Assembly: GCA_000004695.1 (NCBI GenBank)
Contig: CM000150.2
Span: forward strand, 4,608,001-4,672,000
Direction: 5' to 3'
Length of the DNA stretch: 64,000 nucleotides
Source: Dictyostelium discoideum
Lineage: Eukaryota
A program made the position numbers and the translations under genes. The notes beneath the pieces are model-generated. The model was not told the origin of the DNA, ran no database searches, and saw nothing but the letters and a program-made list of their open reading frames with translations. Positions 2,085 through 58,147 of this stretch are shown piece by piece. The first letter of the stretch is position 1, and every line of letters starts with the position of its first letter.

Positions 2085-3533
2085 ATGATAGTAAATCAAG
2101 CATTAATTGAATTAACAAAACAAGTTGCAGTTGCGGTTGAAGAAATTAAATTTTCACCCAACTCAACTAGTAATAATTCAACACCAACAAATAATAAATT
2201 AAAATCATCATCGTCATCAATTTCAAATTGTGATTCGCCATCATCAAAATCGAAATCGAATAGTTCAACTTCAACCCCAACATCACAACCACAAACACCA
2301 TCACAATTACCACAACAAGCACAACAACAAGCACAACAACAACATTATTCAGCAAATTCAATGAATCCGTATTATGCACAACAAGTTTTATTACAATTAC
2401 AAAAACCATCAACATTTGTAAAACACGTTCATGTCGTTGTAAAGAATACACCATTTGGAATTACATTAAGATCTAAAGAACCATTACAATTTAATTTTCA
2501 AAATTATGTTATAAAAGCCACCCTACTCTATGATAGTGACCCACCAAAAATGGTTGATTTCATTCATAATGAGCCATTACAATATGTTGCAACGGTATCT
2601 GAAGATGGGTCAGAGGTTTGTGTTGATGTTAAAGTTGGTATTTTGTCAAGTCAACATCAAGGATCAATGTTTTTAGTTGTATTACATATTAGTCATTGCT
2701 CAGCACCAACACCATCAAATAGTGAACCAATTAGTACAATTCTAACAAATATTGGTAATAACTCTATACACAGTTTAAACGTTACAAATATTTGTGTTGT
2801 ATCACATCCAATTAGAATTGTTTCAAAATTAGATCACGTTAAAAAAGAAGGTATACCAATTTTAAAGAAAAGAACATTTCACGAAATTTTAACTGATAAA
2901 TTAAAAAAATTACAAAAATCACAAGATAGTCAAAGTAAATGGATTAAAAATCTATATCAACAACATGGTGCTCAATATGATATGGAACCTTATAATAGTA
3001 CTTTACATTCTCAAAAAACTGATTCACTCTGTTCTTCTTCAACTTCCACACCATCATTTAATTCAACCTCCTCCTCCTCAAAGAATCAATCCCAATCAAT
3101 TAAAAATGAAGAAGAAGAAGATGGTGGTGAAGACGAAGAAGAAGAAGGAGGCGAAGATAATGATAATGAAAGTGAATCAAGTAATACCAATAGTACACAA
3201 TTAATTGGGAAAAAAAGTATAAATAAATTACCAATTTCAACAACAACTTCATCTTCAAATTTTAATAATTTAATGGTTAATAATAATATAAATAATAATA
3301 ATAATAATAATAATAATAATCATTTAATTCAAAATACAACTTTTTCATCAACTAGTCATTTTCAAAATTCTTTTAATAGAGTAGTTGAAGTTTATAATTT
3401 AATTCCAGAATATGAAAGAGTTGAAGTTATTAGAAAAATGGTTCAACAATTAAAATCTTATGATTTAGAACAATTGGTTTCAACATTTATTGATGAATTA
3501 AAATGTGGTTATGAATCAACTATAATTTCTTAA
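2085..3533 (+). CDS. hypothetical Ser/Gln/Asn-rich protein (single exon)
   Basis: Uninterrupted 482-aa ORF in the track. Poly-Q, poly-N and acidic low-complexity tracts flank complex blocks (VKHVHVVVKNTPFGITLRSKEPLQFNF...; C-terminal RVVEVYNLIPEYERVEVIRKMVQQLKSYDLEQLV). Flanks are AT-rich. The overlapping ORFs 2167-2454(-) and 2965-3204(+) are low-complexity mirror artefacts. Confidence 0.6.
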   Translation: MIVNQALIELTKQVAVAVEEIKFSPNSTSNNSTPTNNKLKSSSSSISNCDSPSSKSKSNSSTSTPTSQPQTPSQLPQQAQQQAQQQHYSANSMNPYYAQQVLLQLQKPSTFVKHVHVVVKNTPFGITLRSKEPLQFNFQNYVIKATLLYDSDPPKMVDFIHNEPLQYVATVSEDGSEVCVDVKVGILSSQHQGSMFLVVLHISHCSAPTPSNSEPISTILTNIGNNSIHSLNVTNICVVSHPIRIVSKLDHVKKEGIPILKKRTFHEILTDKLKKLQKSQDSQSKWIKNLYQQHGAQYDMEPYNSTLHSQKTDSLCSSSTSTPSFNSTSSSSKNQSQSIKNEEEEDGGEDEEEEGGEDNDNESESSNTNSTQLIGKKSINKLPISTTTSSSNFNNLMVNNNINNNNNNNNNNHLIQNTTFSSTSHFQNSFNRVVEVYNLIPEYERVEVIRKMVQQLKSYDLEQLVSTFIDELKCGYESTIIS

Positions 3534-3668
3534 TAAAAATAAAATGTAATAAAAAAAAAAAATAAAATGTAATAAAAAAAAATAAAATAAAATTATAATT
3601 TTTTTTTTTTTTTTAAATAAATAAATAAATAAATAAATTTTTTTTTTTTATTATTTTAAAAAATAATT

Positions 3669-5378
3669 TTATTTATCAAATCGTAAATAAATTATAATAC
3701 TTTTATCACCATTACTAAAATTACCATCTTTAAAATTATTAAAATAATTTAAAATTTTTTTTTTAAAAATTAATTTTCTATTATAATATTTTTCATCTAA
3801 AGTTAAAGTAAATTCTTTTAAAGTTGAGTGAGAATTTTTTGAAAGTTGTTCTAATTTTTTAATATATTTTAAAGAATCATCAAATTGACATTCATTAATT
3901 TCTAATTCAATTGAATATAAACTTAAATTATTATGATTTTTTAATAATGGATTAAATATTGAAGAGACAAAACCTAATACAGTGAATTTGAAATGTTTAA
4001 TAGTTGAATTGATTGAGAAAACAGTTGAAAAGAAATAATCAGTAAATTGATCAAGTAATGGTGAAATTATTGAATCATCTATTAAGCTATCTAAATTTCT
4101 ACCTTTAGTTTTGAAAATTAAAGCTTTAATTGTTTTATTTCTAATTAAATTTGAATATGTTGATGTGAATTCAGTGAAATCAATATTTGTAAATTTTAAA
4201 TAATGTAATTGCGGTGGTGGACCGTCAAAAAGTGATTTAATACCATAGGATAGTTGAATCATTGATTCTCGAATAGAGGATGTATTATTTTTATCAATAC
4301 CATCATACATGCAATGTGGACCACGGAAACAGAAATTCTTTATCGTCATATTTTTTAACTGTTTGCAAGTATTTATTGAATTTATCATTGTTTCCCAATG
4401 GTTTTTAATTGTTTTAATTGTAGATTCATTTAAACCACCGAAATGATTACAACCATTATCATTGATACTTGAATAATTTCCACTTTCAGCTCTGATCATA
4501 TCATGAAATAAAATTGAACATGATAATGTATGAAGATTTGATAATTTATTTATATTTACCATATGATATGGTTCAACATGGTCAGTTCTATCAATTTGAA
4601 TCGATTCAATTCTTGGATTAATTATTTCATTAAAAAATGGTGAATAATTCATATGACAATATGCATCTTGATAATCATTACCATTTGGATTATATTTAAT
4701 TGAAAGTGGTTTAATTTTTTCAATAATATCTTCAAATGCATTTGGATTATTTTCACTTGTACCAACCATTGTTAATTTATTAATTTCAATATCTTTTAAA
4801 TAATAATCATCTGGTATACGATTTTCTTCATTATCATTTATAATTTTAAATAAATTATTTTCATTTTTATTTTCATGTTGTAGTTGTAGTTGTTGTTGTT
4901 GATTTTCTAAATTAATATTTAAAATTGAAAATTTTCCATTTATTTTTAATTTAAAATTTTTTTTTCCAGTTTTATTTGAAAAATAAAAATATTTTAATTT
5001 TTCATCAGAAATTGATTGAATTGGTTGTTGTTGTTGTTGTTTAATATTATTTGAAATTAAATTTGAAATATTATTAAACCATTTCTTTGATACTAATGAT
5101 ATTTCAATAATTTCATCAATAAAATAATATAAATTTTTAATTGTATATCCAAAATTATCTTTAAAATTATTTGTTCTTTTTTTATCAAAAATTAATAAAT
5201 AATTAATTATTGATTTTATAATTTCAAAATCCAAATAATCTGGAAATATTTTCTTATTTTCATTAAAATTATTATTATTATTTAGTTTTTGTTTTTTAAA
5301 TTGTTGAATTGGTAAATTTGTTGTAGTGGTTGTTGTTGTAGTTTTAGTTGATTGAGTTGTTGTTTGTGTAATTACCAT
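3669..5378 (-). CDS. hypothetical protein with F-box-like N-terminal motif
   Basis: 569-aa ORF. After an N-terminal poly-Thr tract, LDFEIIKSIINYLL...ISLVSKKWFNNIS resembles an F-box (LPxEI..I..L...L.VCKxW). The rest has no recognisable homology. Lies divergent to the next gene across a 1.4 kb AT-rich spacer. Confidence 0.55.
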   Translation of the reverse strand: MVITQTTTQSTKTTTTTTTTNLPIQQFKKQKLNNNNNFNENKKIFPDYLDFEIIKSIINYLLIFDKKRTNNFKDNFGYTIKNLYYFIDEIIEISLVSKKWFNNISNLISNNIKQQQQQPIQSISDEKLKYFYFSNKTGKKNFKLKINGKFSILNINLENQQQQLQLQHENKNENNLFKIINDNEENRIPDDYYLKDIEINKLTMVGTSENNPNAFEDIIEKIKPLSIKYNPNGNDYQDAYCHMNYSPFFNEIINPRIESIQIDRTDHVEPYHMVNINKLSNLHTLSCSILFHDMIRAESGNYSSINDNGCNHFGGLNESTIKTIKNHWETMINSINTCKQLKNMTIKNFCFRGPHCMYDGIDKNNTSSIRESMIQLSYGIKSLFDGPPPQLHYLKFTNIDFTEFTSTYSNLIRNKTIKALIFKTKGRNLDSLIDDSIISPLLDQFTDYFFSTVFSINSTIKHFKFTVLGFVSSIFNPLLKNHNNLSLYSIELEINECQFDDSLKYIKKLEQLSKNSHSTLKEFTLTLDEKYYNRKLIFKKKILNYFNNFKDGNFSNGDKSIIIYLRFDK

Positions 5379-47698: not shown

Positions 47699-48612
47699 CT
47701 AATTCTTTATTATGATTACATGTTAAATAGGTGTTTTCAAATTATATGATTATTTTACCACAAATATTAATTCAAAATGATAATAGATGTAGAACAAATT
47801 CAAATGGAAATTGGCGTTGTGAAGATAAATTTCCAGTACCAGATTGGAGCGGAACTATTTCACTATTCTTGTACTCAGATGTTACAAGATATGACCGTGA
47901 GGTAGTTTATAAACCAACCTCGACATCCTCAACAGGTGAAAGAATCAGTTGGGAACGTGGAGATAATACACAGAAAGGTGATAGTGGAACAATTATTATT
48001 CGTGACTTTGCAGATGTTGGTAGAAATATTAAAAAAGGTGTAGTTTGGACGTTGCCTTATGAAAGACCTCAACAATCTTTTGATTTTTTAACAGGATGCT
48101 ATGGAATTTACGTTCAATCTTATCCCTATAGAAAGTATGTTTCAGATGATGCTGTTGATATAACTTTTGTTGAGACTGAAAATCAACCAAATTATGATAT
48201 AGCCTTCATTCAAAGCTTTTTGTTATCCAAGCCAAACAATCAAGTTAAAATCAGAATTTATTATTCATATCACTTAAATAAAACCTATGAATATATACCA
48301 AATAACTTTCAACTAAAAGTAATAAAAACAAACTCAAATGGATATGAACTTAATAAAATTAGAAGAATTCTTGCCTCTGGATCTGATGACCTTTATTATT
48401 TAAATAAAACATACAGTTTTCATACTCAAGGATCAAGTAAAAACTTGGTTACTCGTTTAACATTCCATCAAAATAGAAGTTATCAATTGTATGATAGATT
48501 TGTATTTGAAACTCCAAAATTTGATGTAGGAAAGGATTTCTCTGTAATTCTATTACCAATCTCAAGATTTTCAATCCATTTATTTTCTATAGAAGTTATA
48601 TCTGATAAATAA
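46733..48612 (+). CDS. hypothetical secreted protein (5 exons); parent of the decayed copies at 50.5-51.2 kb
   Basis: Exons 46733..46853 (signal peptide), 46923..46987, 47052..47086, 47170..47614, 47731..48612. Donors are GTAAGA, GTATGT, GTAAGT, GTAAGT. Intron 4 is GTAAGT plus about 78 T plus a short acceptor region. The track ORFs 47171.. and 47731.. are the exon 4/5 bodies. No homologs were recognised. Confidence 0.55.
47621..47698. repeat. roughly 78-nt poly(T) homopolymer making up most of intron 4 of the 46733..48612 gene
   Basis: The intron is GTAAGT followed by an uninterrupted T run and then ctaattctttattatgattacatgttaaatag. Confidence 0.9.
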
Positions 48613-49371: not shown

Positions 49372-50181
49372 ATGAAATTATTATTAGTTTTATTATCTCT
49401 TCTTTTAACATTTTCAGTATTGGTACAATCTGAAGAAGCCTATTTTGCTTTAAAAACCTATCAAGACAATGATTTTATTTTCAAATTAACTGATTCAGAA
49501 AAAATACAAAAAGCCAGAGATATTTTGTCTGGAAGTATGTTATAAATTTTAACAAACTTTAATAATAATAGTAACAATATACACGATTTTATAAAAATAT
49601 CCATATGCTAAAAATATTTTTTTATTTTTAAAATATAGAGGAAACTGAAGAAGTTCATGTAATGGGTAGAATTAGAAAGTCAAATAAAGACTATAATCCA
49701 AGTAAATATTGTTTTGACTTTTAATTAATTTTTTTATAATTATTTTACTAATTTCATTTCATCACTTATAGAGTATTCCTTTCATATTGACCCAGATACA
49801 GTCACATTTTTCAGTATGGCCATTGAAGTTTGTGATGCTACAGCTAGTTATGTAGAAGATTACCTTGATGAGGCCTGTGGTGGTGAGTATTTTAATATAT
49901 AAATTATAAAATTTTAATTAAAAACTAATACAATATTATTATTATTATTATTATTATTATTTTTTTTTATTTTTTTTTTATTTTTTTTATAAAATAAATA
50001 ATAGCTTTCCTCCCAGGGTATGTATTTAATTAAATATAATTTTGAAAAAATTAAAAACTACAATTTGATTAACACATATTTTTTTATAAAAAAAAAAAAT
50101 ATATATATAAATAATAAATGATTCAATAGTTGCTTCTGGTGTCCATGGGCTTCAAAGCTAACAAAAGAAATTAAAGTTTAA
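49372..50181 (+). CDS. small hypothetical secreted protein (4-5 short exons)
   Basis: Exons 49372..49534 (signal peptide MKLLLVLLSLLLTFSVLVQS), 49639..49701, 49772..49882, an optional 13-nt micro-exon 50005..50017, and a terminal exon 50130..50181. The product ends ...FHIDPDTVTFFSMAIEVCDATASYVEDYLDEACG(AFLP)GCFWCPWASKLTKEIKV. The first three exons are reasonably secure. The 3' end is uncertain. Confidence 0.4.
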
Positions 50182-50840: not shown

Positions 50841-51171
50841 ATTAAAAAAGTTATCCTTTTATCATTTTTTGTACTTCCTTCCTTTGGTTCTGGTTATAGT
50901 TTAAATGACCCGACTACTCCTAATTATGTTGGTTTGGTTCGTGGGGGTATTTATTTTTTTTTTAATTTATTTTAAAATAATAATTAATAATTTTGTTTTT
51001 TTATAAGGTATATGCTCTATCCCTACTTACGGGGCAATAGTAGATTCTATTTTCGGATTTGTTTTTGAAACTGAAACTTTGGTTGTTTCTTCAAATAAAT
51101 TTACAATACTCATTTTACCAATACAAAGATTTTCCACCCATTTATTAACCTTAGAGGTTATTATTGATTAA
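50841..51171 (+). pseudogene. internally deleted, start-less copy of the 46733..48612 gene (signal-peptide exon + exon 2 fused to the C-terminal end)
   Basis: The fragment encodes KKVILLSFFVLPSFGSGYSLNDPTTPNYVGLVRG|GICSIPTYGAIVDSIFGFVF...FTILILPIQRFSTHLLTLEVIID*, which parallels the parent MKKVIFLSLIV...NDPTLPDYIGLVRGG|ICSIPVYGAAIDSC...FSVILLPISRFSIHLFSIEVISDK*. The ATG is replaced by ATT (ataaATTaaaaaag versus caaaATGaaaaaag). The first intron is retained at the same position, and about 450 codons of the middle are absent. Confidence 0.5.
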
Positions 51172-51265: not shown

Positions 51266-51315
<50 letters not shown>

Positions 51316-51321
<6 letters not shown>

Positions 51322-52875
51322 TAATTTTGATTCTGATTGTTGGTCAGCAATATTTGAATTTCTTAACCATAAAATTAAATTTGTTCTTTCACCACTTGTT
51401 AAACCTAATGCACCATGACGATGAACACCAATATGAATTAAAGCTACACCTGGAATATGTTTGAATTCAAAGTATTCGTTATGAGTTTCAGGTTTATCTA
51501 AAATTCCTTTAAAGTATAAAGAACCGCCAGTGAATTCGCTACCTAAACATAAATTTACAGTTATATCAGATTCATCATAATGGAAACCTAATTCTTTTTC
51601 TTTATCCATTTTATATTGAACTGCAAATGCATGATGACTATTTAACTTTTCACCATTGTAATCTTTATATAGAATTGATGTGAATAATGATAAATAATCT
51701 TCTCTAAGTTGTTTAAAAAACTCGGTGAATCCCATTTCATCCAATACTGCGCCATAATTATTCATAGAGTTTGGTCTTGCTGTTGGTAATCCTGTATTTT
51801 TAAAATTTTCGATCTCTTCTAATAATTTACTAAAATAAAAATAAAAATGAAAATAAAATTAAAATTAAAATTAGATTTTTTTACTTTTGTTAATCAATTA
51901 TAATAATAATAAAATTAAATTACATACGTGCAAAATTCCATTGTAAATATTCTAAAAGAATAAATTCTAGTTTCAGTTAATTTCGTTAATGCTTTTAAAA
52001 GGTCATCTTGGTTTTTAGTTTTCTTATATTGTTTAATTGGTTCTATGAAATCTTTATCAAAATACTCTTCTCTCAATTCAAAAATTTCTGGATATTTTCT
52101 TTTATATAATTTCGAAATCATATTAATTCTAGCCTCTCTCATTTTTAATAGTTTATTAAATCCTATATTATATTAAATATTAAATATTAAATTGGAAAAA
52201 AAAAAAAAACTATTAGTATAAAAAAAAAAAGAAATAATAAAATTGAATATAATTACCATTTTGTGAATTTTGAATACGCTTTAGTTCTGATTTGGTTGCG
52301 TTATGATGCTTTGAACAACATTGTTGCGAATCTTCATTGTCATCATGTTCATGATGACCATCAGTATTACAACATCCCTTATGTTCGTGTTGGTGATGCT
52401 CATGCTCATGCTCATGCTCATGATCATTGTCATTGTCATGTTTTTCGTTGTGTGTTTCATCTTCATCAGCATCATCATCACTTTCGTCGGTATCACTATC
52501 TAAATCTTTCTCCGATACAATAGTATAGGTTTTATTTGGTACCAAATCATAATTATTATCCTCATCTGGGAAGTATTCTTCACCATTTCCGTCTACAACG
52601 ATGAGACCTCCTTCAGTTTGAAATAAATCATCCAATATATCTTTGGTTGAATATTTTTTGGCCAATCTTAATTCTCCATAACCTTTTTTTAAAATTGTAT
52701 AAATAATAATAAAAAAAAAGAAAAAAAATAAAAAAAGAAAATAGTTAATAAAAATGATATTGTTTTTTTTTTTTTTTTTAATATTCTATTACTTACCCAA
52801 ACTTGTGAAATGAATAATTTCATTGTTGATGTTGTTGTTATTGTTGTTGTTTGAAGAAGAAATTGAAGTTGTCAT
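51316..52875 (-). CDS. 2OG-Fe(II) oxygenase (PKHD/PiuC-type, PF13640-like) with N-terminal Asn tract and His/acid-rich region (4 exons)
   Basis: Exons 52875..52797, 52682..52257, 52162..51928, 51829..51316, all GT..AG (GTAAGT, GTAATT, GTATGT) with phases consistent. The His-rich ORF (track 52213..52665, ...HEHEHEHEHHQHEHKGCCNTDGHHEH...CCSKHH) ends only about 70 nt before the 'start' of the oxygenase ORF (track 51915..52142), and a GTAATT..TATAG intron joins them in frame. The oxygenase part carries HYDESD...H.HG...GERTNLILW (HxD...H, R), the Fe/2OG ligand pattern. Confidence 0.55.
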
Positions 52876-53546
52876 TTTGTTTATTATTGAGTTTTAAAAT
52901 TATTATTGGAAAGTTATTTGTTTATTTGTTTGAATAAAAAAATTATTTAGAACTTATATATATATATATATTTAATATTATTTATTTAAATTTGAATATA
53001 AAAATAAAAAAATAAAAATAAAAAAAATATTTTGTTTTAAAATTTTAAGTGGGAAAGGGGGTGTGTTATTATTATTATTATTATTATTATAATTATTTTT
53101 ATTATAATTGTTTTTTGCTTTATTTTAAAAATATAAAAGAAAAGAAAAAAAAAAAAAAATTTTATTTAGTTATTTTTAAAATATCTATGCTTTTTTTTTA
53201 ATATCTATAAAAAGGTAATCGATTTTTTTTTTTTAATTTTTTAATTTTTTTTTATTTTTATTTTTAAATTAAAAAAAAAACGATTTCAATTTTTTTTCTT
53301 TTTTTTCTCATTTTTATTTTTTTTTTATTTTTTTATTTTTTTATTTTTTTTTATTTTTTTATTTTTTTTTTTTTTTTAATTTAAATTTGAAATTAAAAAA
53401 TGAAAAAAAAAAAATGGAAATAAAGAAAATAAATTAATTAATTAACCTGATTATTCGGATTTTAGGAAAAAACCATGAAACTTGAATTAAATAATTATTT
53501 AATTAAAAATAATATTTTTTTTATTACTCTGTTTTTTTAAATATTA

Positions 53547-54128
53547 TCAAAAATTATTTAATATTGTTTTCTCAATTGTTTGTAAATCTGATCCAGCTTT
53601 AGTTTGGCAAAAATACAAAAATTAAAAATTAAAAATTAAAAAAATAAAAAAATATGGGGTTAATAAATAAATAGATAAATAAATAAAAAAAATAAAAAAC
53701 CAAATACATACAATACTCTGATATTTTAGAACCATTTTTTAAAAAAATGAAATGAAGAACGGTGGATAACTTTGAAATCAATGGATGAATCAAACTTTGG
53801 ATATCTACTTTTAAGAAATTAACTGTTGGATATTGTTCACTTAATTTTGAAAAAGGTTGTGAAATCATTCTACATAACTATTAATAATATTAAAATTAAT
53901 ACAAAAAAATATTTAAGTTGCACTTTAATATTAAATTTAAAACATAATTGCCTGGATTTTTTTTTTTTTTTAAAAAAAAAATACTATTATTATAAAAAAA
54001 AAAAAAAAAAAAAAAAAATATTTATAATACTTACATTTTAATGAACTGTAAAATACAAAAACATATATAGACCTGTTTAGATAAAAGTCTAATTCTTGAG
54101 ATGAATTTATAATTATTACTTTTTCCAT
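53547..54128 (-). CDS. thioredoxin-fold protein with degenerate active site (3 exons)
   Basis: Exons 54128..54031, 53869..53712, 53596..53547. The product is MEKVIIINSSQELDFYLNRSIYVFVFYSSLKCKMISQPFSKLSEQYPTVNFLKVDIQSLIHPLISKLSTVLHFIFLKNGSKISEYSGSDLQTIEKTILNNF. It is collinear with thioredoxin (MxKVxxIxSxxEFDxxL....VVDFxAxWCGPCKMIxPxFxxLSExYxxVxFxKVDVD....MPTFxFxKNGxKVxExxGAxxxxLExxI). The WCGPC active site is reduced to LKCK. The first donor is the weaker GTATTA; the canonical GTAAGT 4 nt upstream breaks the frame. Confidence 0.5.

Positions 54129-54404: not shown

Positions 54405-58147
<3,743 letters not shown>

Follow-up and report, generated by a model that had tools for sequence, protein, structure and literature searches.

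Several 2-oxoglutarate (2OG) oxygenases combine their catalytic domain with an accessory zinc element, for instance the MYND zinc finger of PHD2/EGLN1 or the Zn fingers of the JmjC demethylases, and His-rich metal-binding loops or tails are found in proteins such as ZnuA, ZrgA, RcnA, HypB, UreE and SlyD. One of the few human 2OG oxygenases that remain without a known substrate or function is OGFOD2 (PMC10083964). Here we describe its counterpart in Dictyostelium discoideum, the gene DDB_G0270778, which occupies positions 51,316 to 52,875 on the minus strand of a 64,000-nucleotide stretch of DNA (referred to below as the window; assembly GCA_000004695.1, contig CM000150.2, positions 4,608,001 to 4,672,000 of the forward strand; G+C content 21.8%). 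The predicted protein carries a long acidic linker, rich in His and Cys, ahead of its oxygenase domain. We consider it highly probable, taking the explanation as a whole, that this is the already annotated OGFOD2 gene and that the linker is two-layered, with repeat-derived filler surrounding a putative metal-binding patch.

The closest described relatives are the other members of the OGFOD2 family, with which the protein shares the same helical domain and double-stranded beta-helix core, the HxD...H and Arg/Tyr ligands and an N-terminal beta-grasp domain that is common to the Capsaspora and amoebozoan members. The dictyostelid proteins lack the Cys pair after the core, or the Cys/His tail, that is typical of most other members, and have instead an acidic/His/Cys insert of 77-157 amino acids (aa) between the N-terminal domain and the helical domain. 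The closest solved fold is the lysyl hydroxylase (LH) domain of the collagen lysyl hydroxylases (mimivirus L230, PDB ID: 6ax6; human LH3/PLOD3, PDB ID: 6fxk), though identity is only about 25%, a Pfam scan of the 417-aa protein found no glycosyltransferase or accessory PLOD domains, and a collagen-type substrate is not implied. PHD2/EGLN1 and the JmjC demethylases are alike in pairing an Fe(II)/2OG domain with a separate Cys/His site, which is here a candidate one. However, theirs are folded zinc fingers with a defined ligand spacing, whereas the candidate site here lies in a predicted disordered, repeat-containing linker. The His-rich metal loops and tails (ZnuA, ZrgA and RcnA; HypB, UreE and SlyD) resemble the linker in their disordered composition of alternating His and Asp/Glu, but the linker has no homology to the loops of ZnuA, ZrgA or the nickel/cobalt efflux transporter: its NCBIfam matches to these (ZnuA/ZrgA His loops, RcnA), as well as to the acidic region of RpoD, are sub-threshold (expectation value, E, 0.06-4 for the loops) and were read as compositional.

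A single four-exon gene

The four exons join into an open coding sequence of 1254 nucleotides (nt), and all three introns between them are bounded by GT..AG, with an A+T content of about 91% against 65-77% for the exons. Three intron-less transcript contigs of 1309-1355 nt (L002-L004), assembled from the separate public runs SRR24091721, SRR24091725 and SRR24091726, encode a 420-aa allele (P0059), and their alignment to the window falls into four blocks, one for each exon. Every contig contains exact matches to the three 30-nt sequences that span the exon-exon junctions. In the ortholog from Polysphondylium violaceum (L001 positions 3001-4438, AJWJ01000770.1), the N-terminus through the His/Cys-rich region is coded by a single continuous open reading frame (ORF), and this contiguity validates the join of the first, very short exon (SL joined to GYGELRL). 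Introns 2 and 3 are found at identical codon positions and in identical phases in the P. violaceum gene; intron 1 is missing from it, so that either the Dictyostelium lineage gained this intron or Polysphondylium lost it. The 417-aa product is residue-for-residue the D. discoideum AX4 hypothetical protein DDB_G0270778 (XP_001732961.1, EDR41119.1; UniProt B0G0Z0, where it is named ‘Fe2OG dioxygenase domain-containing protein’). RefSeq and UniProt already contain this gene model, which the transcript assemblies confirm.

A preliminary description of the window, made from its sequence without database searches, had proposed that what looks like two ORFs is one spliced gene, and the transcript contigs, the P. 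violaceum introns 2 and 3 and the identity to DDB_G0270778 all bear this out. The minus-strand ORF at 52213..52665 is present as described, acidic and His-rich and with two Cys-Cys (CC) pairs. The GTAATT..TATAG intron that was proposed to follow it (52256..52163) is exact and joins the frames in phase 1, and the upstream mini-exon (52875..52797) is linked, likewise in phase 1, through a GTAAGT..AAAAAAG intron (52796..52683). All four junction coordinates are exact, and the corresponding joins, 52257/52162 and 52797/52682, occur unchanged in the three intron-less contigs. The one omission was a third intron (51927..51830), which is required because the exon with MREARINM...EFC must join the exon with HYDESD/HRHG. 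We regard it as almost certain that the locus is one four-exon minus-strand gene (coding sequence 52875-51316) and an ortholog of OGFOD2.

Family assignment and catalytic site

Pfam identifies a single significant family in the protein, PF25238 (‘OGFOD2-like domain’), at aa 184-306 (E 4.8e-34; 117.5 bits, compared to a cut-off of 31), and the match spans the full model (1-123 of 123). Homologs from Balamuthia, Xenopus, Rhopilema and Capsaspora are named OGFOD2. The family is large, a full HMMER scan giving 2343 relatives at E<=1e-3, of which 1166 reach E<=1e-10, and D. discoideum is represented among the homolog search matches by one cluster only. On this sequence evidence we assign DDB_G0270778 as the single dictyostelid ortholog of the orphan 2OG/Fe(II) oxygenase OGFOD2. 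The orthologs of Heterostelium, Tieghemostelium and Cavenderia carry the name ‘prolyl 4-hydroxylase alpha subunit’, which is probably the result of automatic transfer.

The preliminary description had labelled the oxygenase as PiuC/PKHD-type and pointed to the 2OG-FeII_Oxy_3 models, a label that the profile searches do not sustain. The isolated C-terminal domain retrieves PF25238 together with a sub-threshold match to PF03171 (E 0.074) and no match to PF13640 even at E<=10, and no PKHD or PiuC model is matched in NCBIfam at E<=10. Pfam matches below the cut-off to CDC45, MCD_N, ArlS_N and DUF2457 (E 0.002-0.65) were dismissed as the product of acidic low-complexity sequence.

When solved structures are searched by sequence (phmmer), the closest is the LH domain of mimivirus L230 (PDB ID: 6ax6; E 7.7e-10), followed by human LH3. 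Foldseek gives the same order, with L230 first (E 3.5e-12, template modelling (TM) score on the target 0.78) and human LH3 next; its matches to solved structures are 2OG oxygenases only, and the structures of PHD2 and of prolyl 4-hydroxylases lie well behind the lysyl hydroxylases, at about 1e-5 and with lower TM scores. The catalytic residues of L230, Y814, H825, D827, H877 and R887 (PMC5802723), align with Y319, H330, D332, H385 and R395 (5/5), all of which are invariant or nearly so across the family (alignments A1 and A3). The modelled double-stranded beta-helix, the HxD...H triad and the basic 2OG ligand place the predicted protein in the 2OG/Fe(II) oxygenase superfamily. It is predicted to work like an LH-type oxygenase, yet is not classed as a PLOD, and it would probably hydroxylate a protein side chain. 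A ‘second Fe2+ site’ in L230 was considered as an analogue and dropped, as it is the catalytic Fe2+ that stabilises the L230 dimer (PMC5802723).

Domain layout

The AlphaFold2 model of the protein has a mean predicted local distance difference test (pLDDT) score of 83.5 and a predicted TM score of 0.80. It contains a confident N-terminal domain (aa 20-88), a stretch where pLDDT falls below 50 (aa 106-150), a long helix (aa 157-187), and a helical region and double-stranded beta-helix that extend to aa 403 with pLDDT mostly above 90. From the N-terminus onwards, the predicted layout is a ubiquitin-like domain, some 70 aa of disordered linker, the long helix and finally a double-stranded beta-helix that resembles that of lysyl hydroxylases.

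The N-terminal domain is a beta-grasp in the model, with a beta-beta-alpha-beta-beta topology that superposes on ubiquitin-like domains. It is seen in about 50 collected homologs, among them sequences from other Amoebozoa and the Capsaspora Ogfod2, and ends in a conserved YxVVSExDLE motif that is followed by an acidic run, the beginning of which is likewise conserved in the family. Exon 1 codes for the poly-Asn tract and for beta-strand 1 of the domain. The remainder is coded by exon 2, and therefore more than half of this ‘His-rich exon’ is a conserved family domain. The preliminary description had read the exon as a probable metal-binding module; the acidic/His/Cys stretch is there, but the first 60 or so codons belong, with the mini-exon, to the N-terminal domain. 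In a literature search we found no description of either the ubiquitin-like N-terminal domain of OGFOD2 or the family-wide association with Cys/His segments.

The acidic/His/Cys linker

The region from aa 86 to 154 (69 aa) contains 15 His, 27 Asp+Glu, 4 Cys and 3 Lys+Arg, compared to 9 His in the other 348 aa of the protein, an excess of His with a binomial probability of 2e-10. Alleles from D. discoideum and ‘cf. discoideum’ isolates code for proteins of 408, 417, 420, 423, 427 and 430 aa, with indels located in the poly-Asn tract and in the (HE/HD)n run. The blocks HEHHQHEHKGCCN and NEDSQQCCSKHH do not change in seven alleles from D. discoideum and D. citrinum, while the (HE)n run and the poly-Asn tract vary in length; the block NEDSQQCCSKHHNATKSELKRIQNSQNG is likewise invariant, D. 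citrinum included.

When the protein is aligned with its non-dictyostelid relatives (alignment A1), the linker insert is seen only in the dictyostelid orthologs. All nine dictyostelid linkers, with lengths of 77-157 aa, contain 10-18 His, 2-7 Cys and 23-44 Asp+Glu, and all nine have a His-flanked CC or CxxC pair that lies 15-35 aa ahead of the KLLxMRE helix. The C-terminal tails of the dictyostelid proteins are short and free of Cys, except for one Cys in Cavenderia. In DDB_G0270778 the tail past NLILW (LRNSNIADQQSESKLE) has no Cys and no His, and the Cys pair that follows the core elsewhere in the family is absent.

Cys/His-rich segments elsewhere in the OGFOD2 family

Among the non-dictyostelid homologs with a C-terminal tail of at least 15 aa (n=128), 70 have at least two Cys within 45 aa of the core, 33 have at least five His and 16 have at least eight His, where the counts cover related sequences and not independent evolutionary events. 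Tails of the amoebozoan type carry CDCGHEH, CACGHEHDH or CRACGKDEPHHHPGHQHDHGEH just after the core, and further examples are found in Balamuthia (HHHHDHDGCSCSC), Naegleria (GDHCCCDHHDEHSCHDHDGACEHHH) and Capsaspora (HHHGHSHEHGHGHGHSH). Several metagenomic protist sequences have tails with 18-37 His, animal tails have CPMC, and two non-dictyostelid sequences (P0113 and P0064) have His/Cys in the linker and the tail both. A Cys pair directly after the core is a frequent OGFOD2 trait, not a defining one.

A second Cys pair is found at the N-terminus of some family members. When considering the collected full-length homologs with an N-terminal CxC (n=22), which include P0205 (Xenopus), P0207 (Rhopilema), P0112 and P0023, 19 also have a C-terminal CxC or CxxC (CPxC in animals). 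In P0023 the N-terminal CxC is located in the beta1-beta2 hairpin of the N-terminal domain. This suggests a putative and previously undescribed Cys4 metal site in the animal-type OGFOD2s, which would bridge the N-terminal domain and the C-terminal tail.

The preliminary description held the coupling of a His/Cys/acidic module to an oxygenase of this kind to be an undescribed architecture. Our literature search agrees to the extent that nothing was found published: there was no paper on DDB_G0270778, on Dictyostelium OGFOD2 or on a His-rich 2OG oxygenase in Dictyostelium, and of 84 papers that mention OGFOD2, none names it in the title. However, Cys/His-rich segments on the OGFOD2 core are frequent among homologs, and a Cys/His-rich element next to this core is therefore a recurrent family trait and not a new architecture. 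What sets the dictyostelids apart is that the element lies in the interdomain linker, where acidic and (HE)n repeats have inflated it.

Explanations for the linker

We propose that the linker consists of two layers, a slippage-prone filler of Asp/Glu and (His-Glu)n and, embedded in it, a constrained patch. The repeat portions are probably slippage-driven filler. The patch would be formed by the His-flanked Cys pairs, HEHKGCCNTDGHHEH and QQCCSKHH, and would bind a divalent metal, either Zn2+ or another transition metal. Its probable equivalent in other OGFOD2s would be their Cys/His-rich C-terminal tail, which has the form CxCGHxH or CPxC, often with an extension of (HE)n, (HD)n or (HG)n. The placement of His/Cys differs by group, being in the linker in dictyostelids, in the C-terminal tail in other Amoebozoa, Naegleria and Capsaspora, and in the form of a compact CxC + CPxC in animals. 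That the conserved His-flanked Cys patch is a functional auxiliary site for a divalent metal is a possibility that we put forward tentatively, and nothing that we found favours Fe, Zn or Ni as the ligand metal of the linker. The wider idea that OGFOD2 as a rule needs a second metal site, distinct from the catalytic one, which in dictyostelids was moved into the linker, is more doubtful; such a site may serve regulation, assembly or protection of the Fe(II) centre.

Several points weigh against the presence of a metal-binding patch. Searched alone, the linker gives one chance match to solved structures (E 1.5) and no relative, and it matches no family in Pfam. Simple repeats are abundant in D. 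discoideum proteins, the microsatellite behind the (HE)n run is polymorphic and the linker is predicted to be disordered, and the linker could therefore be neutral, partly or wholly. The tail counts given above are of related sequences and not of separate evolutionary gains, and the ‘relocation’ of a module from tail to linker would be argued from composition and mutually exclusive placement, not from alignable homology.

The alternative that survives best is that the whole acidic/His-rich stretch is a neutral low-complexity expansion, produced in a tolerant linker by replication slippage in an A+T-rich, repeat-prone genome. In addition to the predicted disorder, this is consistent with the fact that a CATGAG microsatellite codes for the (HE)n run, that the lengths of linker and poly-Asn tract vary between strains (alleles of 408-430 aa), and that the dictyostelid linkers, at 77-157 aa, have little alignable sequence. 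We nevertheless find it unlikely, as each dictyostelid ortholog retains 10-18 His and, towards the same end of its linker, a Cys pair flanked by His, alleles that vary in the adjacent repeats do not differ in the blocks that contain Cys, and the unrelated Naegleria, Capsaspora and Balamuthia carry His/Cys-rich tails on the same enzyme. Moreover, to our knowledge His and Cys are not among the usual homopolymer residues of Dictyostelium.

Improbable to a greater degree is a linker that acts as a dedicated reservoir or chaperone, capturing Fe(II) and delivering or buffering it for the catalytic site in a new architecture, along the lines of the metal supply or buffering suggested in the preliminary description. 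The 69 aa are strongly enriched in metal ligands (15 His, 4 Cys, 27 Asp/Glu), the linker is joined to a predicted Fe(II) enzyme whose facial triad is intact, and the recurrence of similar segments in homologs suggests selection. However, the results do not tell a linker that delivers Fe(II) from one that binds Zn, scavenges inhibitory metals or has a structural role, the compact CxC + CPxC of animal-type OGFOD2s (19/22) resemble a structural Cys4 site more than a reservoir, and the arrangement is not new within the OGFOD2 family. We also know of no built-in reservoir in 2OG oxygenases, for which the known sources of Fe(II) are the labile pool or PCBP-type chaperones.

Lastly, the notion of two separate genes, one for a small acidic His-rich protein (ORF 52665-52213) and one for an oxygenase that starts at the Met at 52142, can appeal to distinct ORFs that each have a possible start codon, but is refuted because the three contigs carry all exon-exon junctions and are continuous across every one, with both parts found in one protein in the orthologs of nine dictyostelids and other eukaryotes, a single gene in the public annotation and an N-terminal fold that requires exons 1 and 2, and we give it virtually no chance.

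Features of the locus

Coordinates of the gene and its product are collected in Table 1. A perfect (TAT/AAT)x18 microsatellite (51266-51320) starts in the region of the stop codon and forms the start of the 3' untranslated region, and all three transcript assemblies stop inside it. The AATAAA further on (51254-51249) is likely the poly(A) signal of the oxygenase gene.

Table 1. Positions in the window of the features of DDB_G0270778, in the direction of transcription within each group.
Feature	Position	Strand	Details
5' untranslated region (minimum extent)	52876..52944	-	start of the longest transcript contig (L002) at 52944; at least 69 nt
Spliced coding sequence	52875-52797 + 52682-52257 + 52162-51928 + 51829-51316	-	417 aa
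Exon 1, coding	52797..52875	-	ATG at 52875; aa 1-26 and first base of codon 27
Intron 1	52683..52796	-	114 nt, GTAAGT..AAAAAAG, phase 1, 91% A+T; not in transcript contigs
Exon 2	52257..52682	-	aa 27-169; remaining N-terminal domain and acidic/His/Cys linker
Intron 2	52163..52256	-	94 nt, GTAATT..TATAG, phase 1; not in transcript contigs
Exon 3	51928..52162	-	aa 170-246 and two bases of codon 247; long helix, start of OGFOD2-like domain
Intron 3	51830..51927	-	98 nt, GTATGT..TTTTAG, phase 2; not in transcript contigs
Exon 4	51316..51829	-	aa 247-417 and stop codon TAA at 51318-51316
3' untranslated region (minimum extent)	51296..51315	-	begins within (AAT)n microsatellite; transcript contigs stop there
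AATAAA	51249..51254	-	about 60 nt past the stop codon; read from the sequence, beyond the transcript contigs
Poly-Asn tract	52823-52851	-	AAC/AAT repeat; length differs between isolates
N-terminal beta-grasp (ubiquitin-like) domain, aa 19-88	52498..52821	-	spans intron 1
Disordered acidic/His/Cys linker, aa 89-156	52294..52497	-	composition, pLDDT, alignment A1
His/Cys core, aa 104-153	52452-52303	-	CC pairs at aa 130-131 and 148-149
(CATGAG)x5.3 microsatellite, coding the (His-Glu)n run	52396..52427	-	Tandem Repeats Finder
Helical OGFOD2-like region and predicted 2OG/Fe(II) oxygenase fold, aa 157-403	51361..52293	-	spans introns 2 and 3; pLDDT mostly >90
Predicted 2OG ligands Y319, R395	51615-51613, 51387-51385	-	L230 alignment
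Predicted Fe(II) ligands H330, D332, H385	51582-51580, 51576-51574, 51417-51415	-	L230 alignment

Neighbouring genes

The genes that flank the oxygenase gene are unrelated to it. Upstream on the same strand is a 753-aa ORF (54405-56666) with importin-beta/IPO5-like HEAT/TPR repeats (PF25574, E 1e-16; PF25780, E 1e-12), which has an acidic, Asp-rich run of its own, with no His, and is probably a single exon of a larger gene that codes for a karyopherin. A short minus-strand ORF at 53629-53868 (FSKLSEQYPTVNFLKVD) has no Pfam match at E<=0.01; it may resemble an exon of a thioredoxin fold. The downstream neighbour lies on the plus strand, runs convergently and ends at 51171. The plus-strand ORFs 47731-48612 and 51079-51171 have similar ends (LPISRFSIHLFSIEVISDK and LPIQRFSTHLLTLEVIID), and a start that resembles a signal peptide is found at 49372 (MKLLLVLLSLLLTFSVLVQS), which suggests two tandem plus-strand paralogs without a Pfam family. 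The second of these runs towards the 3' end of the oxygenase gene, and its stop codon lies about 125 nt from where the oxygenase contigs end.

Significance

The gene structure itself adds nothing new to what is annotated, and the value that remains is modest: Dictyostelium has a single OGFOD2 ortholog, which is easy to knock out. The association of the enzyme with Cys/His segments, together with the ubiquitin-like N-terminal domain, could inform work on human OGFOD2. If true, a second metal site would offer a concrete, testable way into the biochemistry of the uncharacterised human enzyme, by means of an amoeba with tractable genetics.

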